This document shows positions 1-37,000 of a stretch of 64,000 bases of DNA, in pieces. Both the position numbers and the translations under genes were made by a program. This DNA is from Limnochordia bacterium. Lineage in GTDB: Bacteria > Bacillota > Limnochordia > DTU087 > JAAYGB01. The stretch is taken from positions 12,014 through 76,013 of the forward strand of contig JAWLBR010000001.1 in assembly GCA_041687495.1 (NCBI GenBank). Direction: 5' to 3'. Positions within the stretch are counted from its first letter, which is position 1. Each line of letters begins with the position of its first letter. A model generated the notes under the pieces. The model saw only the letters and a list, made by a program, of their open reading frames with translations. It had not been told where the DNA came from and ran no database searches.

Positions 1-127
1 GATGCGAGATCCACCGGCAGACGGTCCGAGAATAAGCAGTTTCCTCGTTCCACTACCTACCAATTTCTCACGTTATTATAGCACAAAACAGAGGATTTGA
101 AACAGGCTGATGACCGCTGCCACATTA

Positions 128-700
128 TCATACAGACAGGCAAACACCAGTCTCAGGTCTACCAATCACCTGCGCTCCACCTAAACTACCCGCCGCAACC
201 GCTGACGCTTCTGCAGTCTTTACGGCCGCGGCTACATCACTAAGGCTGCCTTCCAGGACAAAAAAGCAACGCCCACCCAAGCTAAACCCCCAGCGCAGGT
301 TCCGAAGTACCACCCCTGCTGCCTTAAGCGCTCTGTCGGCAGCGGCGAAGCCTGAAGCAATAGTCAAAGTCTCTACGATCCCTAAAGCCGATTCGTTACT
401 CCCTTTTGCAAAGCGTCCTGCCATTCCCGCCAGGAGCTCGGGGTGGACTCTTCCTAAGACAAGGTGGTCGTATATTGCAGCCGGCTCACACGCAAGAGCG
501 GCTGCGACGGCCTCGTGGACCGCTGCCACTTGTCCCGTAAACAGTGCGGTGAACTTACCCGGACAGACCAGCTCACTTCTCACCACTACTACCTCAGCCG
601 CCTTTGTGGCCGAATCTAGAGCGGACAACCCAGCGGCAGCTCCGCGCATTTCAATCATTCCAAGAGCTTGAATCTCTGATTCCACTGTCCCCTCCTCCAA
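128..700 (-). CDS. BMC-T shell protein, PduT-like tandem BMC-domain protein with Fe-S cysteine motif
   Basis: Two Pfam00936-like BMC domains in ~190 aa (ALGMIEMRGAAAG...; ALGIVETLTIASGFAAADRALKAAGV). Conserved LVCPGKF motif matches the PduT Cys38 4Fe-4S ligand context (PduT TICPGKF). It is the last gene of the BMC operon and its 5' end overlaps the PduS-like gene. Confidence 0.8.
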   Translation of the reverse strand: MEEGTVESEIQALGMIEMRGAAAGLSALDSATKAAEVVVVRSELVCPGKFTALFTGQVAAVHEAVAAALACEPAAIYDHLVLGRVHPELLAGMAGRFAKGSNESALGIVETLTIASGFAAADRALKAAGVVLRNLRWGFSLGGRCFFVLEGSLSDVAAAVKTAEASAVAAGSLGGAQVIGRPETGVCLSV

Positions 701-2033
701 TCTCGATGAAGGTGTCTGTGATTCTCAGGACTCTGCCGGCAATGCTGGCATGCACCAGTGCCCCTAGACTGTTGGCTCGCGGTTCAGCTACTGTTTGCCC
801 CGCCCGCGCACTGTCTCCCACCCCGATACAAGGTTGAGCTGGAGTCCCGATATGCTGCTTCAAGGGTATGCGAACAACAGACACCTCCATTGGCTGAGAT
901 GCCCATGGTGCCGGCTGTGAGTATCTGGCCAAGTCCAGACGCTCCAGTAGTCGGCTGGTGGGGATCTGTCGACCCACCCGCTCCGGCCTGGGCTGAGTGG
1001 GACTAAGGCGATGGGGATTTACGGCCCCTTGAACGATCAGCTCCGCCTTTAGCGCTTGGTACATTCTGCGTGGCGACAGTCCGAGGGGACATGCATACAG
1101 ATCACAAACTCCGCACTCGCAGCACAGGAATGCTTGCGTAATAGCGTCGATATCCTGCCCCAACTGGTGGTTCACAGCGTTCAGTACCTGGCTAGGTTCA
1201 ATTGAGTGTCCCAGAAGCCGACGAGGGCAAAGGTCGGTACAGATCCGGCACTGACAGCACGCGGACTGTGCCTGCCGAAGGATAGCCGAAAGAGGCGTCT
1301 CTGCCTGGCGCACCAATGGATGGTCAGCCGGCAGAACGATGATTCCTTTAGTTGTCTTTGACACTCCACCCGAGTGGTCAAAAAAATCTTGCTGAACTAG
1401 GGTTCCGGTGAGGGGGCCGCCGCTGACCACTCGGTAATGCTCGACGTTAGGTCCGCCGGCCACCGAGAGCAACTGGTCTATGGATGTGCCGACAGGAGCC
1501 CGGACGGTGAGAGGCTGTTTCACGGCACCGGCGACGGTCAGGTAAGTATGAGTGACGGGGTGGCTGTGCAGCGCCCCGGTGATGTTAAGTACCGTCTCTA
1601 CATTCAAAACGACTGCTCCCACAGCCAATGGGATGCCCCCTTCGGGGACTACCTTACCGGTTACCTGATAGACTAGAGCCTGCTCATCGCCGGCAGGGTA
1701 GTAATCGGGGAGGGTAAACAGTGAGAGGCGGTGGTCCTTGAGTACAGCCTTCTTAACACTGGCGACAGCGTCGGTCTGCTTCGCTTTTAGGGCAACTACT
1801 CCCTGCTTGGCACTCACTGCTGTAACCACAGCGCCAAGACCAGCCACCAAAGCGTCTGCCTCTCTCTCAGCCAACTGTTTGTCAACCTGGAGTAGCGGTT
1901 CACACTCGGCCCCATTGACGATTACGATCTCTGCTGTACTGCGCAGTTTGACATGGGTGGGAAAGCCCGCGCCTCCGGCTCCCACAACTCCGGCTGCGTA
2001 CACCAACTGGCTGAGCTGAGTAGTCTCCATCAC
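651..2033 (-). CDS. PduS-like RnfC/NuoF-family Fe-S flavoprotein (BMC-associated NADH-dependent oxidoreductase)
   Basis: N-terminal VVGAGGAGFPTHVKL NADH/FMN-binding motif and two 4Fe-4S motifs (CCQCRICTDLCP; CCECGVCDLYACP). There is a C-terminal RnfC_N-like barrel segment (RIPLKQHIGTPAQPCIGVGD). Length ~460 aa matches PduS. It is immediately followed downstream by a PduT-like gene, as in pdu operons. Confidence 0.75.
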   Translation of the reverse strand: MMETTQLSQLVYAAGVVGAGGAGFPTHVKLRSTAEIVIVNGAECEPLLQVDKQLAEREADALVAGLGAVVTAVSAKQGVVALKAKQTDAVASVKKAVLKDHRLSLFTLPDYYPAGDEQALVYQVTGKVVPEGGIPLAVGAVVLNVETVLNITGALHSHPVTHTYLTVAGAVKQPLTVRAPVGTSIDQLLSVAGGPNVEHYRVVSGGPLTGTLVQQDFFDHSGGVSKTTKGIIVLPADHPLVRQAETPLSAILRQAQSACCQCRICTDLCPRRLLGHSIEPSQVLNAVNHQLGQDIDAITQAFLCCECGVCDLYACPLGLSPRRMYQALKAELIVQGAVNPHRLSPTQPRPERVGRQIPTSRLLERLDLARYSQPAPWASQPMEVSVVRIPLKQHIGTPAQPCIGVGDSARAGQTVAEPRANSLGALVHASIAGRVLRITDTFIEIGGGDSGIRDSSSWND

Positions 2034-2035
2034 GG

Positions 2036-2692
2036 TTAGTCCCTTCCTAAAATCCTGGCTTTGGCTCCACAGCTGATCCCTGCGGCATTGGCATCATCGG
2101 TATCCAAATGCATCTGCAACCGAAATTTCGGACTGACTCGCACTTGGACATTTCTGAAGACAAGCGCCTTCTCCCCTGTAACCTCGACGCTAACTAAGTC
2201 GTTATCCGATACAGCAAATCTCCTGGCATCATCCGGATTCATATGGATATGCCGATTCGCTACGATGGCAGTCTCATCTAGCACCAAGGTGCCGGCTGGG
2301 CCGATCAGCGTAATCGATGCGGCTCCTACCAGATCTCCACTTTTGCGTACAGGAGCGTCTATGCCCAGATATATCGCGTCGGTTCTAGCCAGTTCCACTT
2401 GGGTTCGGCTCCGGATGGGGCCGAGAATCCTGACTTTCTCCACCGCCCGCATTTTCGGTCCAGTTACTGTGACAACTTCCCTAGCCGCGAACTCTCCTTC
2501 TTGGTACAAATCCCGTAGGTTGGTCAGCTGATGCCCTGCCCCATATAGGACATCCAGATCCTTCTGTGACACATGAATATGGCGCACGGAAATACCCACC
2601 GGAACAACCATTGAGTCCTCAGGTACCCGCTGTTGTTGTAGTACTCCCATAACTTCCTTCGTAATGCGCTCCACAAGAGCCCTCTGGTCCAC
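2036..2692 (-). CDS. pduL: PduL-type phosphotransacylase (phosphate acyltransferase) with N-terminal amphipathic helix
   Basis: ~218 aa with duplicated PduL/EutD-type PF06130 repeats (GISVRHIHV..., VANRHIHMNPDDA). N-terminal ALVERITKEVMGVLQQQ resembles the known PduL encapsulation peptide. Confidence 0.8.
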   Translation of the reverse strand: MDQRALVERITKEVMGVLQQQRVPEDSMVVPVGISVRHIHVSQKDLDVLYGAGHQLTNLRDLYQEGEFAAREVVTVTGPKMRAVEKVRILGPIRSRTQVELARTDAIYLGIDAPVRKSGDLVGAASITLIGPAGTLVLDETAIVANRHIHMNPDDARRFAVSDNDLVSVEVTGEKALVFRNVQVRVSPKFRLQMHLDTDDANAAGISCGAKARILGRD

Positions 2693-2718
2693 CGCTACCC
2701 CTTCCTTCTCCAGATACG

Positions 2719-2964
2719 TTATTCAACGACTCCCATGATCAGAGTTTTAAACGGTGCCCGCTCCAGACCAAAGATCGACTTCGCCGCTCCCGGCGGCCCA
2801 CCAGCCAGGACTCTGTCTCCGGGCCCAGCTCCCACATAGTCGATGGCGATCTCGTACTCTGTCCCATGCCCTGCCATAGGCTGAATCAGAAAAAGCCGCT
2901 TTCCTTCTAAGGATTTATGCTTTACAGTACACACCACCGGGCTAATCACTTTAGCTAAGTACAT
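2719..2964 (-). CDS. BMC-P vertex (pentamer) protein, EutN/PduN/CcmL family
   Basis: 81 aa; MYLAKVISPVVCTVKH...LFLIQPM...IAIDYVGAGPGDRVL matches the Pfam03319 pattern. Confidence 0.75.
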   Translation of the reverse strand: MYLAKVISPVVCTVKHKSLEGKRLFLIQPMAGHGTEYEIAIDYVGAGPGDRVLAGGPPGAAKSIFGLERAPFKTLIMGVVE

Positions 2965-3292
2965 TGCTGGTTCCGTCCTCTCCGTTGTTCCCGGCTGTCG
3001 AGAGCAGGCTCAGCTGCTCAACGCTGACGCGATCAACGAGACCCACGATACTGGCATCTACTGGCGTATGATCCCCGGCAAAAGCCACCGCTGCCTCACC
3101 GCTGAACACAACCAGAACTACGTCGCCTTCTCCTGCCTGGGATGTGGCGTCAGCGGCAATATAAGGGCTTCCTCTCTCCTGCAGCTTGGCGTTCAGCGGC
3201 TGCACCGCCATAAATTTCATCCGCTCCAGGTCTGGGTCTCGCAATGAACAAACCACCCTGCCGATCACTCTTCCGAACCGCACGGGCGCCAC
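2951..3292 (-). CDS. BMC-P vertex protein paralog (EutN/CcmL family) with C-terminal tail
   Basis: RFGRVIGRVVCSLRDPDLERMKFMAVQPL...AADATSQAGEGDVVLV fits the EutN/CcmL fold signature. It has an extra ~25-aa C-terminal tail and short overlaps with both neighbouring BMC-P genes. Confidence 0.65.
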   Translation of the reverse strand: MAPVRFGRVIGRVVCSLRDPDLERMKFMAVQPLNAKLQERGSPYIAADATSQAGEGDVVLVVFSGEAAVAFAGDHTPVDASIVGLVDRVSVEQLSLLSTAGNNGEDGTSNVLS

Positions 3293-3615
3293 TTCCCTTC
3301 CTGCCGCCGCGAATAGACCTCAGTTGTGCCAAGATGTACAGCATCAATAATTCCAACGACGGCTGCATCTACCGGAGAGTGACTGAGTTTCGCAGCCTGG
3401 CGAGCCGAACTGCCACTGACCGTCATGACAATGTCGCCAACGCCCGCACCAACTGTATCCACCGCTACAATGCAACTACCCGCAGGCTCGCCAGAAGCGA
3501 TCTGAAGCGGCTGCACCACCTGTAACTTAAATCCGACCAGTTTGGGATCCTTCTGTGTAGCAACTACAGTGCCAACTACCCGTGCCATCTGCATTGTTTT
3601 TCCTGCCTTTCGCAA
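3265..3615 (-). CDS. BMC-P vertex protein paralog (EutN/CcmL family)
   Basis: MQMARVVGTVVATQKDPKLVGFKLQVVQPL...IVAVDTVGAGVGDIVM. The true start is probably the internal Met near 3594. Confidence 0.7.
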   Translation of the reverse strand: MRKAGKTMQMARVVGTVVATQKDPKLVGFKLQVVQPLQIASGEPAGSCIVAVDTVGAGVGDIVMTVSGSSARQAAKLSHSPVDAAVVGIIDAVHLGTTEVYSRRQEGKWRPCGSEE

Positions 3616-3646
3616 AAAGGTCAGCCACAGCCACCCGTCTCGCTAT

Positions 3647-4237
3647 CTATCCGGGGAATTGCGCCAGAAGCGCTGGATGTGGCGCCGGCAGCACCACAGC
3701 GGTCACCAAATCAGCTGGGGCAATCTGTGTCTCACCGCTTTCCACCCCAGCCGTTACTGCAGAAACGGTCCCCGCCATCACTACAAAGGACTTGCCTCCC
3801 ATTCCCCGGGTAAGCCGAACTTCCAAAAGCTCTACCTGTGCTGCTTTCACCGCGGCGTCAGCTCCAGTGATGGCTGCCGCTGCCCGCAGTGTTTCGATGA
3901 CGCCTACAGCGCTGCCAAGGCTGGTGGTGTGAGGCTCCAGCAGAGCATCGACAACCGCTTCAGCGATGTTGGCCAACACGCCCTGGGACAGTACATGCCC
4001 ACCACCGACAGCCACCGCCCGGTTCATAGCCGCCTGAACCGCTGCCACCCGGCCCGAAATGATGACAAAAAACCGACCGGGGCAAATTGGACTGGCCTGA
4101 ACCACCCTTACCTCAGCGGACTTGGCTGCAGCATCGACGCAGATATACCCCCACGGGACACTGTCACACTCCATCAAACCGACCGCGTTCCCGTGATTGC
4201 TCCGGCCTTTTCCATGAGGGCCCTCAGGATGCGGCAT
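3647..4237 (-). CDS. BMC-T shell protein, PduT-like tandem BMC-domain protein with Fe-S cysteine motif
   Basis: Two BMC domains (VGLMECDSV...; SLGSAVGVIETLRAAAAITGADAAVKAAQVEL) and an ICPGRFFVII motif analogous to the PduT Cys ligand. The N-terminal ~20 aa are uncertain. Confidence 0.7.
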   Translation of the reverse strand: MPHPEGPHGKGRSNHGNAVGLMECDSVPWGYICVDAAAKSAEVRVVQASPICPGRFFVIISGRVAAVQAAMNRAVAVGGGHVLSQGVLANIAEAVVDALLEPHTTSLGSAVGVIETLRAAAAITGADAAVKAAQVELLEVRLTRGMGGKSFVVMAGTVSAVTAGVESGETQIAPADLVTAVVLPAPHPALLAQFPG

Positions 4238-5453
4238 CGCTACCTAACCCCTTCACCACAAGATTGTAAGTATCCCGGGCGATGACAAGCTCTTCGTTGG
4301 TGGGGATGACCCACACTTCGGCCTTCGCCTCAGGGGGAGATATTCTTCTCTCTGGGTGGCCATCGGCGTTGCGGGCACTGTCCACCCATATGCCCATGAA
4401 TTCTAATCCGCTGAGAATCTTTTCTCTTACCTGCGGCGCCCGCTCTCCCACGCCACCGGAGACGACAACTGCATCCACGCCGCCCATGGCTGCTGCATAT
4501 GCCCCGACATACTTGCGGCACCGGTAAACAAAAGCGTCGATGGCCAGCTGGGCCCTGCCATTGCCAGCAGCGGCTTCTGCAAAAACCTCCCTTAAGTCGC
4601 TGCTCACACCCGATATCCCCTGCCATCCGCTGGTCTTGTTTAGCATCTGATCCATCTGGTCTGGACTCAGACCTTCCTTTCGCATTAGGTAGGTGATTAC
4701 CAGCGGGTCAATATCGCCGCACCGAGTAGATTGAATTAGTCCCTCGGTAGGAGTGAGGCCGGTACTGACGTCAACGGAACGGCCCCGGTCAAATGCACAG
4801 GCAGTCGTTCCGCTGCCCAGCATCAAGTTGACAATCTTCAAATCTTCCAGGGGCCTTTTCATCAGTTGAGCTACCCGTTCGGTCATATATCGGAAAGTGA
4901 TCCCGTGAAAACCGTACCGCCGAACTCGATACTTCTCGTAGAATTCATAGGGGATGGCATAAATATAAGCTTCCGGCGGAACTGTCTGATGGAGGCTAGA
5001 ATCAAAGACTGCCGCCATAGGCACATCCGGCATCAGCTCTTGACAGGCTCTAATTCCTTGCACATTGGGCGGGTTGTGCAGGGGAGCTAAATCGTAGTAG
5101 TCTTCTAAAACTTTCATTACCTGAGGCGTAATCGGCACCGAACCAATACAGCGTTCGCCTCCATGGACCACTCTGTGGCCTACAGCATCAATATCACTTT
5201 TTTCCTTCACCGCGCCGACTTTCGGGTCAAGGAGAGTAGAGAGGGCCACCTCAATAGCTTCTTGATGACTCAGCGCCGCAAAGGTTCGAGTCAGCGGAGG
5301 CTTGCCAACCGCTAGATGCGTTAGACGGGCATCGCTCCGTCCAACTCGTTCCACTTGCCCCTTCGCCAAGACTATTTCGCTTGGCATTTCCATGAGTTGG
5401 TACTTAACTGAAGATCCTCCGCAGTTTAGCACTAAGACTCTCACCCGAAACAC
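4224..5453 (-). CDS. ackA: Acetate/propionate kinase
   Basis: 409 aa; N-terminal VLVLNCGGSSVKYQL is the acetokinase signature. The full-length ASKHA acetate kinase family match sits inside the BMC operon, as in many metabolosome loci. Confidence 0.85.
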   Translation of the reverse strand: MFRVRVLVLNCGGSSVKYQLMEMPSEIVLAKGQVERVGRSDARLTHLAVGKPPLTRTFAALSHQEAIEVALSTLLDPKVGAVKEKSDIDAVGHRVVHGGERCIGSVPITPQVMKVLEDYYDLAPLHNPPNVQGIRACQELMPDVPMAAVFDSSLHQTVPPEAYIYAIPYEFYEKYRVRRYGFHGITFRYMTERVAQLMKRPLEDLKIVNLMLGSGTTACAFDRGRSVDVSTGLTPTEGLIQSTRCGDIDPLVITYLMRKEGLSPDQMDQMLNKTSGWQGISGVSSDLREVFAEAAAGNGRAQLAIDAFVYRCRKYVGAYAAAMGGVDAVVVSGGVGERAPQVREKILSGLEFMGIWVDSARNADGHPERRISPPEAKAEVWVIPTNEELVIARDTYNLVVKGLGSDAAS

Positions 5454-6055
5454 CCCTCCGTAGTCGTACAGGCAGAACTATGGCCGCCAAACACAAACAC
5501 TCCATCCCAAGCCTGAGGACTGGGGTTGGCCAATATCCTGCTGTCGACAAGCAGCTCTCCGCTTAACGTTTTCAGCACAGCGTCCACTGCAGCTGTTACC
5601 GCGCCTATGGTTCCGCCAAGATACAGGCATCCCCGGCCAGAGATGCCGCCGGCCAAACGAATTGTGTACAACTCCACCTGGGCTGCCTTGACTGCCGTAT
5701 CAGCTGCCAGCACCGCCGAACTGGCACTATAGGTCTCAAGGATCCCCAGCGCCTGTAGCTGGCCCACCGGGGTAGTCCCCTTTACTGCACTGATAAGGTT
5801 GGGATGGGGATTCCCCAGGCAAAAGCTGTCAATGTGATTCCACTCCGGCCGAGCTGCAGCATACTCCAAACCCGCCCGAACCGCGGCAACCTCCCCGGAC
5901 ACCGCAGCTAACAGCTTCCCAGGGCAGACCACCCGAACCAACACTAGCTCGACAGGATAGGCCTTGATTAACCAGTCCACTGCCTTGAGCCCCAATCCGA
6001 TGCTCTTAAACTCCATCATTGCCAAGGCGCTACTGTCCAGCATATTGCTCACCAT
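5441..6055 (-). CDS. BMC-T shell protein, PduT-like tandem BMC-domain protein with Fe-S cysteine motif
   Basis: Two BMC domains (MMEFKSIGLGLKAVDWL...; ALGILETYSASSAVLAADTAVKAAQVEL) and a VVCPGKLLAAV motif. It lies directly downstream of the second PduS-like gene. Confidence 0.75.
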   Translation of the reverse strand: MVSNMLDSSALAMMEFKSIGLGLKAVDWLIKAYPVELVLVRVVCPGKLLAAVSGEVAAVRAGLEYAAARPEWNHIDSFCLGNPHPNLISAVKGTTPVGQLQALGILETYSASSAVLAADTAVKAAQVELYTIRLAGGISGRGCLYLGGTIGAVTAAVDAVLKTLSGELLVDSRILANPSPQAWDGVFVFGGHSSACTTTEGCFG

Positions 6056-7385
6056 CGCTCATAATAGTTACCTCACCATGCTCAATCTTGCTGACCGTCC
6101 CAGAAATACTGCTGTGAACGCTTACACTGAGCGAAGAGCCAGAGCCGACTGCGATCTCCTGTCCTTGGGACACCTGGTCGCCGACATTTACGCTCAGCTT
6201 TCCAGGGGCGCCGACGTGCTGCAACACAGGAATCGTCACACTTCCAGGAGCAACGGACTCTTCCCAGGGATGCGCCTTCTTCTCCCACTGGAACAACCCT
6301 AACCGGAGCACCAATCTCTGCGACGGCAGCAGATTCCCCTGACCATCCCACTCACTGTTCTCTTCGAGACAAAACTCTGATTTTGGGGCAGAGACCTCCC
6401 GCAGACGTCGTTTCAGCCATCGGTTAATTTGTCTGGGGGAAAGTCCCATGGGACAGACCACATCGCAGACTCCGCACTCGCTGCACAGTACTGCGGCTTT
6501 CGCACTCTCGAGTTCCAGAGTTCCTTCGGTAGATGCACTGCGCATGGCCAGATGCGGCACCAACGGATGGCCGAGTAAGTGCCTCGGGCATAGGTCCGTG
6601 CACAGAGTGCAGGAACAACACACCTGGTTGGCGAGTCGGACCATGTGCTCAACCGATAGGTGTGCTCGACCGTGCAGATGGTCCACGGGATGATTGGTAG
6701 GAACGACAATGAGACCCTTCGTTGTCTTAGTCACCGGCTGGTCCAAGTCTGCCACAAGCCTTCCCATCATCGGTCCGCCCTCGATTATCTGGTAACTGGC
6801 AGGCGACGGCTGTGCTAAGGCAACAACCTGTGACACTGACATGCCAATCGGGGTTTTAATGGTAAGGGCCCGCTTCACCGCTCCAGTTACGGTAACCCAG
6901 GAATGGGTTACCGGAAAGCCCGCAGCCGCTTCAGCAATGTTGTACAATGTCTCTACGTTAAGAACTACAGCCCCGATCCGAAGAGGGATATCTCCCGGCG
7001 GGATCGTTCGGCCCAAAACATGCCGACACAGAACATGTTCGTCCCCCATGGGGTAGACATCGGGAAGAAGCGCTATCTCCAACCAGGGATACGAAACAGA
7101 CAAATCCGCAAACATCTCCACTTGGTCTACATGCTTAGCCTTGACAGCTAAGTAGGCTCTCTTGGCCTTAACCGCTCTCGAAACCAGTTCTAGCCCTTGT
7201 AAGATAGTCTCCGGGTAGTGAGCCAACAGAACTTGGTCTACCTGGAGAAGGGGTTCACATTCAGCTGCATTGACAATGACTGTCTCAATCCCTTCACCTA
7301 GCTTGCGATAGGTAGGAAACCCAGCACCACCTGCTCCGACAACTCCTCCACGGCGGACAGCCTGAATCAACTGCTTGAGCTGCAT
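6030..7385 (-). CDS. PduS-like RnfC/NuoF-family Fe-S flavoprotein, second paralog
   Basis: VVGAGGAGFPTYRKL plus two 4Fe-4S motifs (CCSCTLCTDLCP; CSECGVCDVVCP). There is a C-terminal RnfC_N-like barrel (VTIPVLQHVGAPGKLSVNVGD). ~451 aa. Confidence 0.75.
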   Translation of the reverse strand: MQLKQLIQAVRRGGVVGAGGAGFPTYRKLGEGIETVIVNAAECEPLLQVDQVLLAHYPETILQGLELVSRAVKAKRAYLAVKAKHVDQVEMFADLSVSYPWLEIALLPDVYPMGDEHVLCRHVLGRTIPPGDIPLRIGAVVLNVETLYNIAEAAAGFPVTHSWVTVTGAVKRALTIKTPIGMSVSQVVALAQPSPASYQIIEGGPMMGRLVADLDQPVTKTTKGLIVVPTNHPVDHLHGRAHLSVEHMVRLANQVCCSCTLCTDLCPRHLLGHPLVPHLAMRSASTEGTLELESAKAAVLCSECGVCDVVCPMGLSPRQINRWLKRRLREVSAPKSEFCLEENSEWDGQGNLLPSQRLVLRLGLFQWEKKAHPWEESVAPGSVTIPVLQHVGAPGKLSVNVGDQVSQGQEIAVGSGSSLSVSVHSSISGTVSKIEHGEVTIMSDGEQYAGQ

Positions 7386-7428
7386 CTGGAACCTCCTTCC
7401 CAGACCAAGTCCAGTGCTGCGGCATCAT

Positions 7429-8868
7429 CTAGATTGACAGTGCCCCTTGCACAGTTACGTTTCTCTGCCGGGTGAAAGTCCGTGGCGTACAGATCCCTTC
7501 GCCAGTAGGACTTGCAATGGTATGTCCGAAGGTGCCGTTGCCCTCCACACCCAGGGACGCCGTTGCCGGACCATTGGCCACCACAATGGTTGTGTTCATC
7601 TTGCGGGCAAAGGCACTGATGCGCTCTTCCATGGACGAGTGGATGATGGCCGTATGACCAAACCCCTGCTCTGCTTCATAAGCCCGCTCCAGTCCCTCAG
7701 ACCAATTAGCTACTGACACAATCGGTAATACTGGCAGCATCTGCTCGATTTTCACCAATGGATGGTCAAAGGGCACCTGTAAAATAGCTCCCTCGGTACC
7801 AGGTGGGGCAGCGATTCCCGCCCGCCGAAGAATATCCGCCCCATCTTGGCCGACGCAGTCGCCTACCACATGGTTATCCTTGATAATGAGGTTACAGACC
7901 TGCCTCTTCTCCTCATCACTCTTCAGTAGATACGCATGATGCCGCTGCATTTCTTCAATTAGAGCCTCCGCCACAGAGCTCACTACAAATACAACCTTCT
8001 CCGAAATGCAGAGAATGTTGTTGTCAAACCATGAGCTACTGATGATGTCCCTGGCTGCCCGATGAATGTCAGCCGTCTCGTCGACAACCACAGGTGGATT
8101 AGCAGCTCCAGCCGCAACCGCCTTTTTCCCGCAGCTGAGCGCCGTACGAACAACTGCCGGACCTCCTGCGGCGGTAACCATCGCAACCAGGGGATGAGTG
8201 ATCACCTGGTTTACTACATCCAAAGTAGCCTGGTTAACGGCTACCAGACAGTTCTTCGGCCCACCGGCGGCGATAATGGCCCTGTTGAGAGTACGGATGG
8301 CTTCACGGGTGCATTCCTGAGCCCGAGGATGTGGGCAGAAAAACACAGTATTGCCCCCAGCCAGCATGATGATGGCGTGGTTGATAACAAAAGGAGTGGG
8401 ATGAGTAGTGGGTGTAATCGATGCGATTAGGCCGTAAGGACCCCGCTGCGTCAATGTGATACCATAATCACCTGCTTGAACAGCTCGAGGAAGGTCCTCA
8501 GTACCTGGAGAGAGTTTCGCTGCGTTAATGTTCTTCTGTACCTTGTGTTCATATCTGCCTAACCTAGTCTCCTCGATGGTCAGCTGGGCAAATCGTTGCG
8601 CATGCTCAATTCCCGCTTTGCGCACAGCGGAAATGACGGCCTCTCGCTGTGCCAAAGACATCTGCATTAACTCTTGTTGAGCTGCCTTGGCGGCTTCAGC
8701 CGCTGCGCCAACGGAGGTAAAGATCCCTGCTTCCTCGCTTGCACCGGGAGATTCTGTAGGTATTTTTGCTTCCGTGGTGAGGTTTCTCAAGACCTGGCTG
8801 ACTAACTCCGAAATCCTTTTCTCGTCTATCTGCATAGCAGGTACCTGCTGGGCTGCACACATCACCAA
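7429..8868 (-). CDS. CoA-acylating aldehyde dehydrogenase (PduP/EutE-like) with N-terminal encapsulation peptide
   Basis: ALDH-superfamily acylating subfamily hallmarks (GIFTSVGAAAEAAKAAQ..., catalytic Cys region ILCISEKVV, ...GEGICTPRTFTRQRN C-terminus). The N-terminal IDEKRISELVSQVLRNL amphipathic helix plus linker precedes the catalytic domain, as in PduP. The likely start is the Met at ~8835. Confidence 0.85.
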   Translation of the reverse strand: MVMCAAQQVPAMQIDEKRISELVSQVLRNLTTEAKIPTESPGASEEAGIFTSVGAAAEAAKAAQQELMQMSLAQREAVISAVRKAGIEHAQRFAQLTIEETRLGRYEHKVQKNINAAKLSPGTEDLPRAVQAGDYGITLTQRGPYGLIASITPTTHPTPFVINHAIIMLAGGNTVFFCPHPRAQECTREAIRTLNRAIIAAGGPKNCLVAVNQATLDVVNQVITHPLVAMVTAAGGPAVVRTALSCGKKAVAAGAANPPVVVDETADIHRAARDIISSSWFDNNILCISEKVVFVVSSVAEALIEEMQRHHAYLLKSDEEKRQVCNLIIKDNHVVGDCVGQDGADILRRAGIAAPPGTEGAILQVPFDHPLVKIEQMLPVLPIVSVANWSEGLERAYEAEQGFGHTAIIHSSMEERISAFARKMNTTIVVANGPATASLGVEGNGTFGHTIASPTGEGICTPRTFTRQRNVTVQGALSI

Positions 8869-8995
8869 GCCCGAATGTTATGCCTGGCTAGAGCCTGAAC
8901 CATGGCGTCAGCCCAGCAGTTTCAGGCCCCCTTTGCTGCGAACTAAGTAAGATGCGACCGAGACTATCTCAGCTGGAAGAAGCTGAAATAGCGAT

Positions 8996-9280
8996 TCACT
9001 CGCCACGGGGAACCAGGATTTTCTCCACGTCACTATGGGGCCGAGGGATAACATGGGCCGCTACCAGTTCAGCCACCCTGCCGGCAGCCTCGGCGCCAGC
9101 ATCCACAGCCGCCCTGATCGCTCCGACATCTCCTCGGACCATAACGGTGACCAAGCCCGACCCGATCTTCTCATAGCCCACCAGCTGAACATTGGCAGCC
9201 TTGACCATCACATCAGCAGCCTCAATGGCTCCGATTAAGCCCTTTGTCTCGATTAATCCCAACGCTTCGCCCATTTCCAC
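8996..9280 (-). CDS. BMC-H shell protein (PduA/PduJ-like hexamer)
   Basis: 94 aa; [58 protein letters not shown] is the canonical Pfam00936 sequence. Confidence 0.9.
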
Positions 9281-9361
9281 TACATCCTCTCTTCTGATAA
9301 TTTGGTGTAAAAAAATACTTGCTACTTGCCCGTAGACTTCGCCTAAGACTGGCGCTGCCCT

Positions 9362-9649
9362 TTATATCTCAAGGTTTTTGGCAAACAAGTTCGCCACTTG
9401 CCTGTCTGCCCGTGCGATAATCTTGGTGACGCAAGGCCGACCCATTCTGCCGGCACAATCTTCGGCAGCCTCCACCGCCGCCGTCACTGCCCCGACTTCT
9501 CCCGCTAACTTGATCACAAACTTACCGCTGCCTTTGGATGGTTCGAGACCCAATAGTTCAACTGCAGCAGTCTTAGCGGCGCTGTCGGCGCACGCATAGG
9601 CTGCAGCTAAGCCGGCCACTTCCAGCAGCCCTAGAGCTCTTCCTGCCAT
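9362..9649 (-). CDS. BMC-H shell protein, divergent paralog
   Basis: 95 aa; ALGLLEVAGLAAAYACADSAAKTAAVELLGLEPSKGSGKFVIKLAGEVGAVTAAVEAA has the BMC fold signature. It has non-canonical Cys residues and an SGKF motif. Confidence 0.8.
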   Translation of the reverse strand: MAGRALGLLEVAGLAAAYACADSAAKTAAVELLGLEPSKGSGKFVIKLAGEVGAVTAAVEAAEDCAGRMGRPCVTKIIARADRQVANLFAKNLEI

Positions 9650-9747
9650 CGCCTTTCACCCCTTTCACACCTAGCTATCAGCGTCAGAGCGGAAGCGAAA
9701 ATTAGCAGTTCCAATTCACTCCCGCCGCTGCGCTGCGTCCGGATGGG

Positions 9748-10554
9748 TTACTTGCCCGTTTGCTCGGACAGAACTTTCATGGTAACTTCAGTGATGATTC
9801 GCACCAGGTCACTTTCACTAACTCCCGAATCAGCCGGAACGCCAGGATGCTGTTCTGCCTGACTCTCCTCCACGTAGACACTCCCACCCTGGCAGGTAGC
9901 CGGATGCCGACCAACTACTCCCAACTTCCGCCGCACTTCCATCAACTTCTCCACATCAGGCGAACTGATAGCTTTCTCGTTGCCCAGCTGCCTAGCCAGA
10001 AGGCTGATCTGAGCGCCTAGGTCCAGAGTCTCCATCTTAAAATAGGCGTTGTACACATCAGTGCCAACCGTCAGTGCCCCGTGATTCTCCAGTAAGAACG
10101 CATCGTGGCACTGGAGATACTTGCTGACCGCTTGGGGGATCTCATCGGTTGATGGAGTTCCATACTCTGCCACCGGCACCCATCCAAGACTGATTACTAC
10201 CTCAGGCATGATTGGCTTCGTCAAAGGTATTCCCGCCACAGCAAAGGCAGTGGCATGGGGCGGATGGGCGTGGACCACCGACTTGACGTCATCGCGCTCT
10301 CGATACACCTGCAGGTGCATCTTCAGCTCTGATGAGGGTTTGAGCTTGCCGGACTTAACCGTCCCATCCATATCCACTTTGATAATCATGTCCGGAGTGA
10401 GAAAACCCTTGCTGACTCCAGTGGGAGTCGTTAATACTTCATCTGGACCCGTCCGAATAGTGATATTGCCGTCATTGGCAGCAACAAACCCCTTATTATA
10501 TATCCGTCGCCCCACCTCAATGATGTCTCTTTTTAGCTCGAATTCAGACGCCAT
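9748..10554 (-). CDS. Class II aldolase/adducin-family enzyme (fuculose/rhamnulose-1-P-aldolase-like) with C-terminal extension; BMC signature enzyme
   Basis: PF00596-like core with metal-binding His (VVHAHPPHA, ENHGALTVG). It is ~50 aa longer than stand-alone FucA/RhaD and ends in the amphipathic helix SDLVRIITEVTMKVLSEQ after a Gly/Pro/Ser-rich linker. It is the first large gene of the operon. Confidence 0.85.
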   Translation of the reverse strand: MASEFELKRDIIEVGRRIYNKGFVAANDGNITIRTGPDEVLTTPTGVSKGFLTPDMIIKVDMDGTVKSGKLKPSSELKMHLQVYRERDDVKSVVHAHPPHATAFAVAGIPLTKPIMPEVVISLGWVPVAEYGTPSTDEIPQAVSKYLQCHDAFLLENHGALTVGTDVYNAYFKMETLDLGAQISLLARQLGNEKAISSPDVEKLMEVRRKLGVVGRHPATCQGGSVYVEESQAEQHPGVPADSGVSESDLVRIITEVTMKVLSEQTGK

Positions 10555-10586: not shown

Positions 10587-10790
10587 TTATACTGTGATGG
10601 CCTTCCATTCACCCTGTCGAAAACGCCATTCGATCACCATAGCGCTGACCCATTGGTCTGCTGCACAGGCGATCCATGCTCCAATCAAGTCCCAAGAAAA
10701 AACAACGCCAAATAAGAAGGCGAAAAGCACCCGAAATCCCCAGATGCCAACATTTGTGACAACTCCAGTCCTCCATCCTTGCCTGTGCAA
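10587..10790 (-). CDS. Hypothetical small hydrophobic protein (possible spurious ORF in the BMC operon leader)
   Basis: 67-aa ORF with a hydrophobic stretch (VLFAFLFGVVFSWDLIGAWIACAA) that ends 33 nt before the aldolase start. No recognisable family. Confidence 0.2.
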   Translation of the reverse strand: MHRQGWRTGVVTNVGIWGFRVLFAFLFGVVFSWDLIGAWIACAADQWVSAMVIEWRFRQGEWKAITV

Positions 10791-11041: not shown

Positions 11042-11830
11042 CTAAAAACCGGCGGCCCGCTTGCGCTCTTCTTTGATGCTGCCATCGATACCGATGGTAA
11101 ACTCATGAACAGGCAGCGTCTGGCCGGACAACTCCAGCGCCTGTTTCGCGATATATACCAATCCGGAGCAGCACGGAACCTCCATGTGCACGATGGTAAG
11201 TCGGCGCAGGTTGTTCCTCGCAATGATGTCAGCCAGCTTAGCAACGTACTCGCTGGCATCGTCCAGTTTGGGGCAACCTACTGCCACTGCCCGCCCACTG
11301 AGGAACTGCCGATGAAAATCACCGTAAGCAAAGGGAACGCAGTCGGCACACAGAAGGAGATCCGCCCCCTGGAAGTACGGGGCATTGGGAGACAGCAATG
11401 ACAGCTCCACTGGCCACTGTCTTAGTGCCGATGTCAGCTCTAGTGGCTCGGTGCTCTCCGTGGGATGGTGGTTTGCACTTGACTCCTTCTCAGTCTTTGG
11501 CGTTGCGGCAAAATGCATCATCCGGGCCCCGGGGCATCCGCTGTGCCCATGGTCACCGTGGGTTGACCCCTGTGGCTGTTGCGAAGACTGCCGACGAACA
11601 TGAGCCAATGCCGCTTCCTCGTCAAATTCAGGAGCTTCTCGCTTTTCAATAGTCAGGGCTCCCTGTGGGCAGTGGCCTAAACAGGCGCCAAGACCATCAC
11701 AAAAGTCATCCCTCATTACCCTAGCTTTGCCGTCAATAATCTGCAGTGCGCCTTCGGCGCAGGCAGGAACACACAGCCCACAGCCATTGCACTTCTCCTC
11801 ATCAATTACGATCATATCTCTCATTGGCAT
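11042..11830 (-). CDS. 4Fe-4S dicluster ferredoxin-domain protein with His-rich linker and Cys-rich C-terminal domain
   Basis: N-terminal CNGCGLCVPACAEGAL and CDGLGACLGHCPQGAL are two classical CxxCxxCxxxCP motifs. A His-rich low-complexity linker follows. The C-terminal domain carries CADCVPFAYGDFH and VPCCSG motifs and has no family I can name. Confidence 0.6.
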   Translation of the reverse strand: MPMRDMIVIDEEKCNGCGLCVPACAEGALQIIDGKARVMRDDFCDGLGACLGHCPQGALTIEKREAPEFDEEAALAHVRRQSSQQPQGSTHGDHGHSGCPGARMMHFAATPKTEKESSANHHPTESTEPLELTSALRQWPVELSLLSPNAPYFQGADLLLCADCVPFAYGDFHRQFLSGRAVAVGCPKLDDASEYVAKLADIIARNNLRRLTIVHMEVPCCSGLVYIAKQALELSGQTLPVHEFTIGIDGSIKEERKRAAGF

Positions 11831-31133: not shown

Positions 31134-32696
31134 CTAACTACCGCTTACAGCAAACTCCCAGTCTCTTTGTCCCACTGCTTGTACCAGTCGGTCTGTTGGA
31201 ATCCCCATGGCAACCGCTAGTTCGGTCTTTGCTAATTCGTAATCCAGGCCTGCAGACAGCAGCTGGTTCTCGCCTTGGCGCACCATCAGTTCTATATCCA
31301 GAAGATCAGTCTGCGGCAGAGAGCCCAATTCTACCATCTGCCGGGTCTGCCTGTAGGTAGTCTCAGCTTGGACCAACGCTGACTCAGCCAACTCATAGGC
31401 AGCCCAGGCCTGGGTCATCTTCTCCATGGCGCCATAGATCATCAACGACAAGCTATCCGCCAGCCCATCATACTGCAGTTGCGCCGACCTGTACTGACTG
31501 TCTGCTTGCTTTAGCTCAGCCTCTCTTGTTCCCCCATCACCAAAAGTGTATGACAGTTCGAGACCGACCTGCCAGTCTGGGGTAGGCCCACCCGTTGGTA
31601 GGGATGAAGCGTCGCCTTTGGATCGAGCGGCAGTGCCCGTCGCCATCCAATCACTATCAACCGAACCTTGGACTACAAAATCCTCAACCTGGCGAAGCCC
31701 CGACAGAGACACCTTCCAGTCCCGACGTCGTTCCACAGCCCTCACCCCAACCTCAGCCATCTGTACCTGTTTCTCAGCTGACTTAAGGTCAAGTCGGTTC
31801 GACAGAGCAAAATCTAGAGCCTGCTCGAAGTCCACTTCCCATGGCACTGGGGTTAAGTCTTGGTCTCCTATCAGATTCTCTGCCCATTGATCCGCTCGAT
31901 CTAAATAGGTATGATCCAACCCAATGATTTGCAGTAATCCCAGCAAAGCTAAGTTCGCACCACTTCTCGTGGCATTAAGGGCATTCTGGGCCTCAAGCAG
32001 TTCGTTCTGTGCGGTAAGCACATCCAGCGGTGTAGCTATGCCCGCTTCCAGTTTGTCTTGCGCGACCTGTACTTTTGCTGCTCCGTTACTTACCGCCAGC
32101 TCTGCCAAACGCACACCTCGGAGACTCTTGACCAGGCCGTAGTACGCCGACTGTACGTTGGCTACAACCCTGGTTACCGCCTCCTGTTGAGCTATGGCAG
32201 CTTGCTGTGCTCCCAATTTGGCTGTCTCCAACCCAGCTCGCAGATCATTGTTTGGCAGTAACTGCTGCGCCCAGGTTAGGCGCCCTGACGTCGTCTCCAG
32301 TTCCAGATGCTCCAACCCACTCACAGAATGGCTGACACCACCCTGGATCTGAGGTTTGAGAATGGCACTTATTTGCTCCAAATGTCCCATCGCCCCATCC
32401 AGCTGATACCCAGCTTGTTTGACTCCTTTGTCTGTGGCAATGGCGATTCGAAGAATATCGTTGAGGCCCCCGATGACATCCAAACTGATGGTGCCGTTTT
32501 CCAGCCCATCTAGAATCTCTTCTAGGCTTGCGCCGCCTTGGGCCTCTACGCCAGCGGCGCTCACCATCCCGACTCCTCCAACTGTTAAGGCCGCCAGCAG
32601 GGCGCCGATGACCAGCGCCCGCAGCAGACTCTTATGTTCACCTCTCATCATGTCTAGCATTCTCTCCCACTCCCCAACTGCTAGAAAGTGCCGCAA
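31134..32696 (-). CDS. TolC-family outer-membrane efflux protein
   Basis: 520 aa; signal/anchor region, then duplicated coiled-coil/beta-barrel OEP repeats (…LDVLTAQNELLEAQNALNATR…; …DLLDIELMVRQGENQLLSAGLDYELAK…). Confidence 0.75.
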   Translation of the reverse strand: MRHFLAVGEWERMLDMMRGEHKSLLRALVIGALLAALTVGGVGMVSAAGVEAQGGASLEEILDGLENGTISLDVIGGLNDILRIAIATDKGVKQAGYQLDGAMGHLEQISAILKPQIQGGVSHSVSGLEHLELETTSGRLTWAQQLLPNNDLRAGLETAKLGAQQAAIAQQEAVTRVVANVQSAYYGLVKSLRGVRLAELAVSNGAAKVQVAQDKLEAGIATPLDVLTAQNELLEAQNALNATRSGANLALLGLLQIIGLDHTYLDRADQWAENLIGDQDLTPVPWEVDFEQALDFALSNRLDLKSAEKQVQMAEVGVRAVERRRDWKVSLSGLRQVEDFVVQGSVDSDWMATGTAARSKGDASSLPTGGPTPDWQVGLELSYTFGDGGTREAELKQADSQYRSAQLQYDGLADSLSLMIYGAMEKMTQAWAAYELAESALVQAETTYRQTRQMVELGSLPQTDLLDIELMVRQGENQLLSAGLDYELAKTELAVAMGIPTDRLVQAVGQRDWEFAVSGS

Positions 32697-32708
32697 GTAC
32701 GCCTGTGA

Positions 32709-33794
32709 CTATTCCTGTACGTCAGGACGCAGAGCCACTGCCACTGCCCTAAAGTAGCGAGCCTTGGCTAGATTATAGTCAAAGGCGGCGTTGATGTGCT
32801 CGGTTTTGGCGCTGGTTACCGCCACTTGAGCATCTTGAACCTCATTACTTGTAATCATGTCAGCCTCGTAGGACAGCTCAGACAAGCGCAGAGTTTCTTG
32901 GGCTTCTTCAACACCCTTGGCCAGTACGCCGATGCGCTCCTGGGCGTCCATCACGGCCAAGTAACTTTGCCGAATCTCCAGGTTCAGACCATCCTTCGCC
33001 TGCTGATACTGCAGCTTTGCCTTCTCTAGGTTAATCTTGGCCTGCTCCAGAGTCAGCGCCGCAGTGTAGTCGTTATCCGACAGCTCCACGTTTTTCTCAG
33101 CAACTTCCAAAGCCAACTGTAGCTGTTGAATCTCCATCCGGTTCTCCAAGGCAAACGCCAAGTCATCTTCCAGGTTCAACTGAATAGGCTCGATGCTGAA
33201 AGCAGAGCTAGCTGGATAGACGTTGGCATCGAGGGCAATTCCCAGCGTCTGTCGGAATTTCATCAGCGCCAGATCCCGGCCATGTCTTGCCTGCGTCAGG
33301 TTGGCCTGGGCATTGAGCACATTTCTGGCGGCCTTAATGACATCCAGCTTAGTCACTGTGCCGGCAGCCAGCTTTTTGCTGGCCACTTCCTCGTGTCGTT
33401 TCGCTGATGCCAAGGACTCCTCAACCACCTGAAGTAAGTTCTCTGCCTTCAACACACTGTAAAAGTCTGTCTCTACGGCCAAAGCTAGATCATCTTCGGC
33501 CAACCGCAAGTCCTGTTTAGCCAAGTCCAGCCCCGACTGGGCTTGCAGCCGCAGAGTCGGTGATGGCCGCATGATTGAAGCAGCTTCCACCTGCTTAAAG
33601 TTGAATTCCGCTTCACGGACCTTCAGCTGTGCCTGTTTAATCGCTAAGCTGTTTTCCAGTGCAACATTCAGAGCCTCTTCCAGGGAGATGTCCCTTCGGG
33701 TTTCTTCGGCGAAGGCCAAAGTACCAACGAACAAAGTCGCCAACAGTACTGCCAACACCAACGTCAGACTACGCTTTGCCAACATTCCTACCAC
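32709..33794 (-). CDS. TolC-like outer-membrane efflux protein, short paralog
   Basis: 361 aa with a signal peptide and OEP-type repeat architecture. It is shorter than typical TolC. Confidence 0.65.
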   Translation of the reverse strand: MVGMLAKRSLTLVLAVLLATLFVGTLAFAEETRRDISLEEALNVALENSLAIKQAQLKVREAEFNFKQVEAASIMRPSPTLRLQAQSGLDLAKQDLRLAEDDLALAVETDFYSVLKAENLLQVVEESLASAKRHEEVASKKLAAGTVTKLDVIKAARNVLNAQANLTQARHGRDLALMKFRQTLGIALDANVYPASSAFSIEPIQLNLEDDLAFALENRMEIQQLQLALEVAEKNVELSDNDYTAALTLEQAKINLEKAKLQYQQAKDGLNLEIRQSYLAVMDAQERIGVLAKGVEEAQETLRLSELSYEADMITSNEVQDAQVAVTSAKTEHINAAFDYNLAKARYFRAVAVALRPDVQE

Positions 33795-33895
33795 TCCTTT
33801 GGCTTGACTTTTCTTCTCAAAGCCGGAATTACGTCAAAATCTCCTCGCATAGCCACTAGCCTCTTGAGCACCTTTGTAGCTTTGTAGCCTTTCAC

Positions 33896-36800: not shown

Positions 36801-37000
36801 AGGGGACGGGATACCATGTTTTCAATCTCATACGGTCCGGCATCCTGATAGGTGGTGATGATGGCCATCACCGGAGCTTCTATGTTCGGAAACAGGTCGA
36901 TGGGCAGTCGAGTCAGACTAACAAAGCCCAGAATTACCACAATAAGTACAGCCATCAACACCGTGACCGGTCGGCGCACTGCAACGTGAGGCAGCTTCAC
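33896..37000 (-). CDS. RND-family efflux permease (AcrB/HAE1-like)
   Basis: 1034 aa; 12-TM RND architecture with two large periplasmic loops, collinear with AcrB. Confidence 0.95.
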   Translation of the reverse strand: MKLPHVAVRRPVTVLMAVLIVVILGFVSLTRLPIDLFPNIEAPVMAIITTYQDAGPYEIENMVSRPLEETLGAVNGVTNITSVSSKGSSAVVLEFEWGTDMDMIALDVREKVDLIKDYLPDDAGAPMVVKFDPQSMPIMQLVLNADKPAHELRRIADDVIKNRLERLDGVASVNVSGGQEREVQVVVHPGLLQRYGISVNTVVQSLQGANLNLPAGRVTEKGLDYVLRTTGEFTSLREIEEVRIPTAAGGTVRLADIGSVSDTYKETTQLSRHNGKPSVALSVQKEASANIVQVAERVRQEVKALEGDLGGAQIAIMNDTSVFIQDSIDSVTLNALLGAGLAVLVLLVFLRSVKTTLIIATAIPVSIIGTFILIYFSKTTINMMSLGGLALGTGMLVDSAIVVLESIFRHWESGKNGDDAAAEGAEEVGTAISASTLTTISVFLPVVFVSGISGEIFQDLALTVTFSLLAAMVVALTVIPSLASKLLSKNGNNTKSRQGLAQRVMDSIQNAYGRLVGWALRHRLIVSVVTIVIFGISLALVPKVGMEFMPQMDEGSITVSVSMPKGTKLEETDRITRTIEEFSGQIPEVDSVYVSVGSSGMMGLGGDSNAETGSVGVTLVPLADRQRSTFEILEEIRQYTSGIPGADITVRANSSFMGGFGEPIQIKLKGDDLEMLELSAERLKDAIAEVPGTREVRTSLEQTRPEFQLQVNREKAAAQGLSIAQIASTVRTAVNGQTATQYRTEGREVDVVVRFQEQWRGTSADIRSIPLQSARGTLIPLGEVAELVMGESPIQVNREGQTRMVSVSGQISGRDLASVMRDVGVRLQDVSLPDGVFLEFGGQNQEMNESFMQLFQALLLGIVLVFMIMASQFESLLQPLAIMFTLPLALIGVVGGLLLGGTALSVPGFIGVIMLAGIVVNNGIVLVDYINTLRRQGQSRNDAITEAGKVRLRPILMTTLTTILGMLPLALASQEGSEMQKPIALAVIGGLVTSTLLTLVVIPVAYSLLDGMKDWFSRLRQRRTSRDEDVEAGA

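Follow-up and report, generated by a model that had tools for sequence, protein, structure and literature searches.

A fourteen-gene aldolase-signature microcompartment operon with two PduS/PduT-type gene pairs in a Limnochordia bacterium

The window analysed here is a 64,000-nucleotide (nt) stretch of a Limnochordia bacterium (contig JAWLBR010000001.1, GCA_041687495.1), to which all coordinates refer unless another contig is named. It contains an operon for a bacterial microcompartment (BMC) that is best read as an aldolase-signature metabolosome of the MIC4/MUF3 kind, with fuculose- or rhamnulose-1-phosphate as the likeliest substrate and with NAD+ regenerated through MNdh and BMC-T^SE (a probability of about 0.7). 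MNdh and BMC-T^SE are the names given to PduS and PduT, respectively, by Sutter et al. 2024 (PNAS). The enzyme core of aldolase, aldehyde dehydrogenase (AldDH), PduL, acetate kinase and PduS/PduT without an alcohol dehydrogenase (AlcDH) is already catalogued. The part not described in the literature consulted is the conserved doubling of the PduS/PduT module, together with a third BMC-T with a cysteine pore ahead of the BMC-P triplet. The operon consists of 14 open reading frames (ORFs), all on the minus strand, which follow one another head to tail between 10554 and 128, separated by short gaps or overlapping slightly. In the order of transcription they encode the aldolase, two BMC-H, AldDH, PduS, BMC-T, acetate kinase, BMC-T, three BMC-P, PduL, PduS and BMC-T. 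A Pfam search matched each of the 14 proteins to its expected family with a score far beyond the curated cut-off, and the key motifs for catalysis and for cofactors are intact. The initial annotation of this DNA, which had named 14 co-directional genes of these families, was thus correct in every call.

The signature enzyme is a class II (zinc, dihydroxyacetone phosphate (DHAP)-type) aldolase of 268 residues (9748-10554; Pfam Aldolase_II, 170 bits). Its Aldolase_II domain spans residues 10-184, and the limits of the domain confirm the C-terminal extension proposed initially, which is ~80 residues long. A linker and C-terminal encapsulation peptide are located at approximately residues 246-264 (nt ~9763-9819), and the amphipathic segment DLVRIITEVTMKVLSE is kept in the orthologues. 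Alignment with solved L-fuculose-phosphate aldolases showed that Glu76, His95/His97 and His158 correspond to the catalytic and zinc residues of FucA, with the Glu in SSELKMH, the His-x-His in HAHPPH and the third zinc His in ENHG. The initial annotation had conceded that an epimerase-like protein with lost catalytic residues would overturn its interpretation; the aligned and intact FucA-type residues indicate that the aldolase is catalytically competent and neither degenerate nor epimerase-like.

The AldDH (7429-8868; Pfam Aldedh, 108 bits) is of the EutE/PduP acylating type (NCBIfam PRK15398, 537 bits vs. a cut-off of 403). Its true start is probably the Met 11 codons after the ORF start (8835, 'MQIDEKRI'), and the orthologues begin with MQ(I/V)DE. 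The best solved relative is the Clostridium phytofermentans microcompartment AldDH 4C3S, which we take to come from a fucose-utilisation microcompartment, and the catalytic Cys residues of the two proteins align. The N-terminal encapsulation peptide of the AldDH is a conserved amphipathic stretch, MQIDEKRISELVSQVLRNL, with the top hydrophobic moment of the protein, and over the whole protein the helical hydrophobic moment peaks at KRISELVSQVLRNL. The PduL-type phosphotransacylase (2036-2692; Pfam PTAC, 245 bits) is called a phosphate propanoyltransferase by NCBIfam (PRK15070, 252 bits vs. a cut-off of 209), and its conserved N-terminal encapsulation peptide, LVERITKEVMGVLQQ, likewise has the top hydrophobic moment of the protein. 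The acetate/propionate-family kinase (4224-5453; Pfam Acetate_kinase, 424 bits; NCBIfam ackA, 423 bits vs. a cut-off of 293) has no encapsulation peptide and so is presumably cytosolic.

The two PduS homologues are of the MNdh type. Both S1 (6030-7385) and S2 (651-2033) match Pfam Complex1_51K, Fer4_17 and RnfC_N, and S2 also matches SLBB, for which S1 scores slightly under the cut-off. GAGGAGFP and two Cys-rich ferredoxin motifs for 4Fe-4S clusters are retained in both, and the best solved relative is RnfC (7ZC6 for S1). In the second of these motifs S1 is one residue shorter (CxxCxxCxxxCP) than all its orthologues. The three BMC-T genes encode PduT-type trimers with two BMC domains each: T1 (5441-6055, pore VCPGK) is the partner of S1, T2 (3647-4237, pore ICPGR) has no adjacent PduS and heads the BMC-P triplet, and T3 (128-700, pore VCPGK) is the partner of S2 and the last gene of the operon. 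PduT is the top NCBIfam match of all three, yet under its equivalog cut-off. A PDB search with T3 alone gave the PduT structures 3PAC and 3N79 as the best solved relatives, with CPGKF aligned. The pore cysteine, a 4Fe-4S ligand in PduT, is kept in all three trimers. The set of three PduT-like trimers with a duplicated PduS described by the initial annotation is therefore real, with PduT as best match, the pore Cys kept and the PduS cofactor motifs intact. The paired genes are adjacent or overlapping (S1 at 7385-6030 with T1 at 6055-5441; S2 at 2033-651 with T3 at 700-128). Each pair shows the features that define an MNdh/BMC-T^SE module, namely adjacency, CPGK, FMN/NADH (FMN, flavin mononucleotide) and two 4Fe-4S motifs, and a co-occurring AldDH. 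As a separate observation, T1 ends in a tail of ~16 residues with two cysteines (...GGHSSACTTTEGCFG; 5441-5490) that its orthologues lack and that runs into the beginning of the acetate kinase gene.

Comparisons with other loci showed that the doubling is old. The identity between S1 and S2 is 41%, and T1, T2 and T3 are mutually 31-33% identical, each being no closer to the others than to Salmonella PduT. In neighbour-joining trees the bootstrap support is 100% for both the S1 and the S2 clade, 96% for the T1 clade and 84% for the T2 clade; the BMC-T tree was used for these two internal clades and for pairwise identities only. The lone PduS of MUF3 loci falls together with S2 (87%), leaving S1 outside this group. 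Three contigs from biogas plants or fermenters (L016-L018, including GCA_001577815.1) have the identical 14-gene order, and each of their genes is closest to the gene at the same position here, including S1 to S1, S2 to S2, T1 to T1, T2 to T2 and T3 to T3. GCA_012519025.1 (L045/L046) keeps this order but has only one BMC-H, and the combined contigs L013 and L015 of SRR13298159 show both the order and the flanks of the study locus. The T1 orthologues have CPGK in four of four cases, the T3 orthologues keep the Cys within CPGK, CSGK or CPDK, and the T2 orthologues keep the Cys with R, R, S and H at the fourth motif position across four lineages. Among the best database matches, clustered at 90% identity, the S1 clade takes in 17 clusters and the S2 clade 19. 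The old paralogues, the matched orthologues and the sizes of the clades indicate that the doubled module is a stable trait of a modest clade and no recent accident of this genome. Unlike the aldolase and S2, S1 has no 100% match in a collection of 5.8 billion proteins, and its gene may be uncalled as protein-coding in the deposited record.

The closest relatives of the aldolase are 81%, 75% and 74% identical and come from metagenome assemblies. Those at 60-66% belong to Limnochordia, Halanaerobiaceae, Moorella, Peptococcaceae CEB3 and 'Firmicutes bacterium' assemblies, and the close relatives are all from Bacillota assemblies. A scan of GTDB genomes with the aldolase gave nothing above 67% identity, and a metagenome scan with S1 gave relatives at no more than 44% identity, none with the 14-gene order. 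In Limnochordia assemblies two divergent operons share out the components, among them one PduS and two BMC-T. AldDH sequences were placed in a small neighbour-joining tree, which took in MUF3 (CEB3) but no catalogued MIC4 sequence; there the study locus groups with L013 and L016 (100%), then with Limnochordia (98/97%) and then with MUF3.

In the catalogue of Sutter et al. 2021, MIC4 comprises 15 loci, some from Firmicutes and others exemplified by Melioribacter roseus and candidate division KSB1, and MUF3 comprises eight loci from Clostridia. Both types have an aldolase, AldDH, phosphotransacylase, acetate kinase and PduS/PduT with a pore Cys, lack an AlcDH and are listed as being of unknown function; the text names one PduS/T pair only. 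The study locus resembles MIC4 in its pfam00596 aldolase, pfam00871 acetate kinase, PduL-type phosphotransacylase and AldDH with an N-terminal encapsulation peptide, and in the missing AlcDH. A PduS beside a PduT-type BMC-T with a pore Cys is also a MIC4 feature, which is found twice here (S1-T1 and S2-T3), with T2 in addition. The BMC-P triplet has a counterpart, in number, in three mutually divergent EutN_CcmL genes in tandem, and the variable BMC-H set includes one protein with unusual interface residues. However, the two PduS and three BMC-T differ from the one pair of the catalogue text, and the gene order differs from that of a MIC4-like locus (L008). In the trees of Sutter et al. 2021, the MIC4 AldDH lies near MUF2/MUF3, and the AldDH here is nearer MUF3 than L008 in our small neighbour-joining tree. 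The clade of the BMC-P and the position of the AldDH relative to MIC4 references aside, the locus as sequenced has every written feature of MIC4.

MUF3, whose members include Peptococcaceae CEB3, Moorella humiferrea, Thermanaeromonas toyohensis and Mahella australiensis, has the same four enzymes, with the aldolase first and the AldDH-PduS-BMC-T-AckA block in the same order. The catalogued MUF3 locus of CEB3 (L044) reads Ald-H-H-H-PTAC-P-AldDH-PduS-T-AckA. The MUF3 arrangement of encapsulation peptides, at the N-termini of AldDH and phosphotransacylase and at the aldolase's C-terminus, is found both here and in the orthologues. Among the AldDH sequences sampled, that of MUF3 branches beside the study clade and Limnochordia, and S2 groups with MUF3 PduS. 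In contrast, MUF3 has one BMC-P, three BMC-H and one BMC-T, compared with three, two and three here, and its PduL lies between BMC-H and AldDH, whereas PduL is here part of a 3' module, T-P-P-P-PduL-PduS-T. The identity to CEB3 is 47% for AldDH and 57% for the aldolase, and the CxxCGxC of the MUF3 aldolase linker is absent here. We read the locus as a member of the MIC4/MUF3 group in which the T-P-P-P-PduL-PduS-T module lies 3' of a MUF3-like Ald-H-H-AldDH-PduS-T-AckA backbone.

The initial annotation had compared the enzyme core with PVM-type metabolosomes. The locus is an aldolase-signature metabolosome as it had claimed, but PVM is the wrong comparator and MIC4/MUF3 fit. PVM loci share the class II aldolase, AldDH, phosphotransacylase, acetate kinase and BMC-P triplet, and probably the same chemical logic. 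According to Sutter et al. 2021, PVM has two BMC-H and three BMC-P, and its main loci lack BMC-T, as the initial annotation had stated; three BMC-T are present here. The PVM genes for lactate/malate-dehydrogenase-type NAD+ recycling and for a DeoR regulator are both missing from the window. PVM is also confined to Planctomycetes and Verrucomicrobia, and the aldolase of the closest planctomycete locus examined is 45% identical. The study locus thus lies outside PVM as it is defined. For membership among the PVM-like loci, which have GRM5-related parts (Sutter et al. 2021), the excess of BMC-P over BMC-H genes here is an adverse sign. The best solved relative of the AldDH is a GRM5-type enzyme, but the PDB is sampled too sparsely for this to decide the matter. 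PduS/PduT do occur in PVM systems, 20 times according to Sutter et al. 2024, with 18 of these in satellite loci. A Phycisphaerae contig (L011, 748-10984) carries an aldolase-type locus with a PduS/BMC-T pair inside the main cluster, an instance of the module in a PVM-phylum locus.

No AlcDH gene is present in the operon, and no Fe-ADH, Zn-ADH or Ldh-type family was found in 39 further ORFs of the window (all those of at least 150 residues not embedded in a longer ORF, and the CsoR gene). The lack of an AlcDH for NAD+ recycling that had been noted initially therefore extends beyond the operon to the scanned ORFs. Using bioinformatics, assays, electron paramagnetic resonance and voltammetry, Sutter et al. 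2024 described NADH oxidation by MNdh and electron transfer to the shell cluster, and reported a gene adjacency of 97% and a CP(G/S)K motif that is universal. In that study 361 loci carry the module without an AlcDH, MIC and MUF types being among the carriers. The study locus conforms in its PduS adjoining a PduT-type trimer with CP(G/S)K, its AldDH and its lack of an AlcDH, and differs in that the module occurs twice as old paralogues and that a third Cys-pore BMC-T has neither an adjacent MNdh nor the motif Lys. Export of electrons through the shell, as suggested in the initial annotation, is with PduS/PduT present the likely route of NADH recycling; it is not a new proposal, however, being the published model of Sutter et al. 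2024.

In the proposed mechanism, the aldolase would reach the lumen by means of its C-terminal encapsulation peptide. A ketose-1-phosphate would enter through the shell, which would be built of the two BMC-H, the BMC-P triplet and the three BMC-T, and would be cleaved by the aldolase to DHAP and an aldehyde. With L-fuculose- or L-rhamnulose-1-phosphate as the likeliest substrate, this aldehyde would be L-lactaldehyde. The AldDH and PduL, each encapsulated by its N-terminal peptide, would convert the aldehyde to acyl-CoA and NADH, and the acyl-CoA to acyl-phosphate with recycling of CoA. The acetate-kinase homologue, probably outside the shell, would use the acyl-phosphate to give ATP and the free acid. 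Within MNdh, electrons of NADH would travel by way of FMN and two 4Fe-4S clusters; the pore 4Fe-4S of the adjacent BMC-T^SE would receive them and hand them on to a cytosolic acceptor, so that no alcohol by-product would be made. Of this, the sequence comparisons establish the gene identities, the motifs, the targeting peptides, the positional orthology and the missing AlcDH. We infer the electron export here from the published work, and more weakly the substrate and why the module is doubled.

Several observations weigh against this interpretation. The organelle is known here from genes alone, and its expression and assembly are predictions. Promoter and terminator scans performed no better than chance, and an Rfam scan of the window gave no RNA element or riboswitch. 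As an electron acceptor, the product of a ferredoxin-like gene upstream of the operon (11042-11830) would not be specific, since the gene is also present in a relative without microcompartment genes. The remaining points concern the substrate and bear on the strongest alternative, in which the same organelle acts on another ketose-1-phosphate (5-deoxy-ribulose-1-phosphate, D-ribulose-1-phosphate or a tetrose or pentose derivative), with acetaldehyde or glycolaldehyde as the aldehyde and acetate or glycolate, not lactate, as the product. We regard this as possible, though clearly the less probable case. The aldolase falls under every NCBIfam equivalog cut-off, with a decarboxylase model as the best match (131 bits vs. 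a cut-off of 250), FucA models at 80-117 bits (cut-offs 250-400) and RhaD at 66 bits (cut-off 170), so that its substrate is unreadable from sequence. The top NCBIfam matches include decarboxylase, aldolase and epimerase models alike, and the solved relatives include, besides FucA, 6BTD and 6VOQ, which are labelled just 'aldolase'. An ORF scan of the 64-kb window gave no fucose or rhamnose isomerase, kinase or permease and no DeoR regulator, and the listing of MIC4/MUF3 without a function leaves room for such a substrate. However, an alpha-L-fucosidase gene (PF01120) lies directly 3' of the last BMC-T of the orthologous operon in GCA_012519025.1 (L045, 17530-18762). This adjacency is the sole substrate clue found for the clade and hints at fucose. 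The same aldolase family is used in PVM and GRM5, which process fuculose/rhamnulose phosphate (Sutter et al. 2021), and it is this family resemblance together with the one fucosidase adjacency that leads us to fuculose/rhamnulose-1-phosphate. The flux of deoxy-nucleoside salvage would also seem too small for an organelle.

The other alternatives concern PduS and the doubling. It is tentatively conceivable that the two PduS/BMC-T pairs are non-redundant, being conduits that differ in acceptor, midpoint potential, nucleotide specificity or direction, with T2 as an enzyme-free redox or metabolite pore. The divergence of S1 from S2 and of the three trimers from one another agrees with this, as do the matched orthologues of both sets in at least four lineages with similar clade sizes, the weaker SLBB and, in the study locus, the shorter second ferredoxin spacing of S1, and T2, which keeps the Cys but never has the Lys of CP(G/S)K. 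However, all cofactor motifs are kept in both PduS, dosage or redundancy would explain the retention equally well, and no paralogue-specific partner gene was found. In addition, Sutter et al. 2024 found that the MNdh phylogeny tracks microcompartment type poorly and argued for a generic housekeeping role. A more far-reaching version, in which S1-T1 and S2-T3 co-evolve separately as non-interchangeable conduits and a redox-capable T2 is wired to the pentamer module in a clade of Bacillota that are uncultured and probably diderm, is rather unlikely. If it were true, lumenal reducing equivalents would be sent to different cytosolic acceptors or potentials by condition, and electron transfer through the shell would have several tunable channels in place of one housekeeping outlet. 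A distinct subtype apart from the catalogued classes, as the initial annotation had suggested, is improbable. The catalogue text has one PduS/T pair for MIC4/MUF3, the MUF3 shell with one BMC-P and three BMC-H is unmatched here, and no paper was found that describes a doubled MNdh module; the literature was searched for text on two MNdh genes in one operon, the locus diagrams of the catalogue lying outside this search. Against a distinct subtype stand the match to the written MIC4 features described above, the nesting of AldDH and aldolase among MUF3 and Limnochordia relatives, and the extra BMC-T genes recorded in other types such as GRM1B and SPU1 (Sutter et al. 2021). Moreover, the assemblies with identical order are public, and their proteins may already be in the source database of the catalogue. 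What stands of the suggested subtype is a conserved sub-architecture of doubled PduS and three BMC-T; the enzyme core is catalogued and the gene order is found elsewhere. These assemblies presumably date from about 2016-2020, judging by their accession series. An already catalogued locus of the same content and order had been named initially as a finding that would refute novelty; half of this applies, as the content and order are indeed found in public assemblies, whose catalogue label was not seen. For MIC4, the tree files of the catalogue gave entries from Ignavibacteriae and KSB1 only. A role of PduS as a cobalamin reductase instead of an NAD+ recycler follows the historical Pdu annotation but was rejected as very improbable, since the operon has no B12-dependent enzyme, adenosyltransferase or reactivase; the 2024 work also argues against this role in B12-independent microcompartments.

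The MIC4/MUF3-kind metabolosome thus brings no new organelle chemistry or principle, as its enzyme core, missing AlcDH, electron export and gene order are all known or public. Its value is that of a natural experiment for the recent MNdh/BMC-T^SE model of electron export. Two old pairs and an orphan Cys-pore trimer in one operon offer a direct test of the specificity of MNdh-shell pairing, and the pairs permit differences in redox potential or acceptor to be tested. The conserved doubling also poses the question of why a single conduit is not enough for some organisms. To the MIC4/MUF3 group the locus contributes digester bacteria related to Limnochordia and a link to a fucosidase, which could help to assign the substrate of the group.

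Comparisons of the aldolases outside the orthologous operons gave further observations. The MUF3-type and other microcompartment aldolases (L005, L044, L043, L004, L014 and the minus-strand copy of L002) have a conserved CxxCGxC in the linker, which may be a metal-binding site. The motif precedes the encapsulation peptide, its equivalent here lies at ~9820-9900, and it is lost in the study locus, L013, L001 and L016. The aldolases of Moorella sp. UBA4076 (L004) and of a Melioribacteraceae member (L009) have a C-terminus like an encapsulation peptide and are followed by an acetate-kinase-like gene, and no shell genes are present within the up to 10 kb examined on each side. The targeting tail of the aldolase is thus not always tied to a local shell operon. 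In contig L001 (ENA ERZ2647865, 10001-12245), the 74% identical aldolase nests inside the microcompartment-bearing clade and keeps the C-terminal targeting helix. The flanks on both sides are shared with the study locus, the other 13 microcompartment genes are absent, and a phosphoglucomutase-family gene starts 32 nt after the aldolase, as if the organelle genes had been cleanly deleted or had moved elsewhere. A MatE gene lies upstream in L001; the ORF at 10587-10790 was considered as its remnant, which tblastn did not support.

The remaining shell genes encode two hexamers and three pentamers. The first BMC-H (9362-9649; Pfam BMC, 66 bits) has a non-canonical edge, with 'IARAD' for 'IPRPH' on reading of the sequence. 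It has an orthologue in L016, and L045 and L013 show no BMC-H call at the corresponding position. The second BMC-H (8996-9280; Pfam BMC, 104 bits) is canonical, with KAANV, a GSG pore and IPRPH, and is 72-83% identical to its orthologues in L016 and L045. The three BMC-P pentamers (3265-3615, 2951-3292 and 2719-2964) match EutN_CcmL with 110, 75 and 69 bits, respectively, and the first has position-matched orthologues.

A pseudogenised locus was ruled out, as all ORFs are intact and conserved. The window extends for 127 nt 3' of the last operon gene. A non-coding element at 60-104 (minus strand), which bears TATAAT and holds TGCTATAAT at 75-83, is conserved with 91% identity over 45 nt at L015 4592-4636, just upstream of a PGM_PMM gene. 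The element probably serves as promoter for the next gene, of the phosphoglucomutase family, which would itself fall just past the left edge of the window. Since unrelated genes follow the last BMC-T in the orthologous loci and the element marks the 3' limit, the operon is complete at 14 genes, as had been stated initially. Upstream of the aldolase are genes for a ferredoxin-domain protein, a PBP2-type transpeptidase, a CsoR-type repressor, a LacI-type regulator and a GDPD, and a pyrimidine operon, which are housekeeping or unrelated genes. Elsewhere the window has genes for two TolC-like OEP, AcrB, HlyD, arginine deiminase, a chemoreceptor, GFO/IDH/MocA oxidoreductases and others. The host is Limnochordia-like by its nearest relatives. 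The two TolC-like outer-membrane efflux proteins, the AcrB-type pump and the HlyD-type adaptor at 31134-38334 imply an outer membrane, suggesting that the host is probably a diderm Bacillota and not a classical monoderm spore-former.

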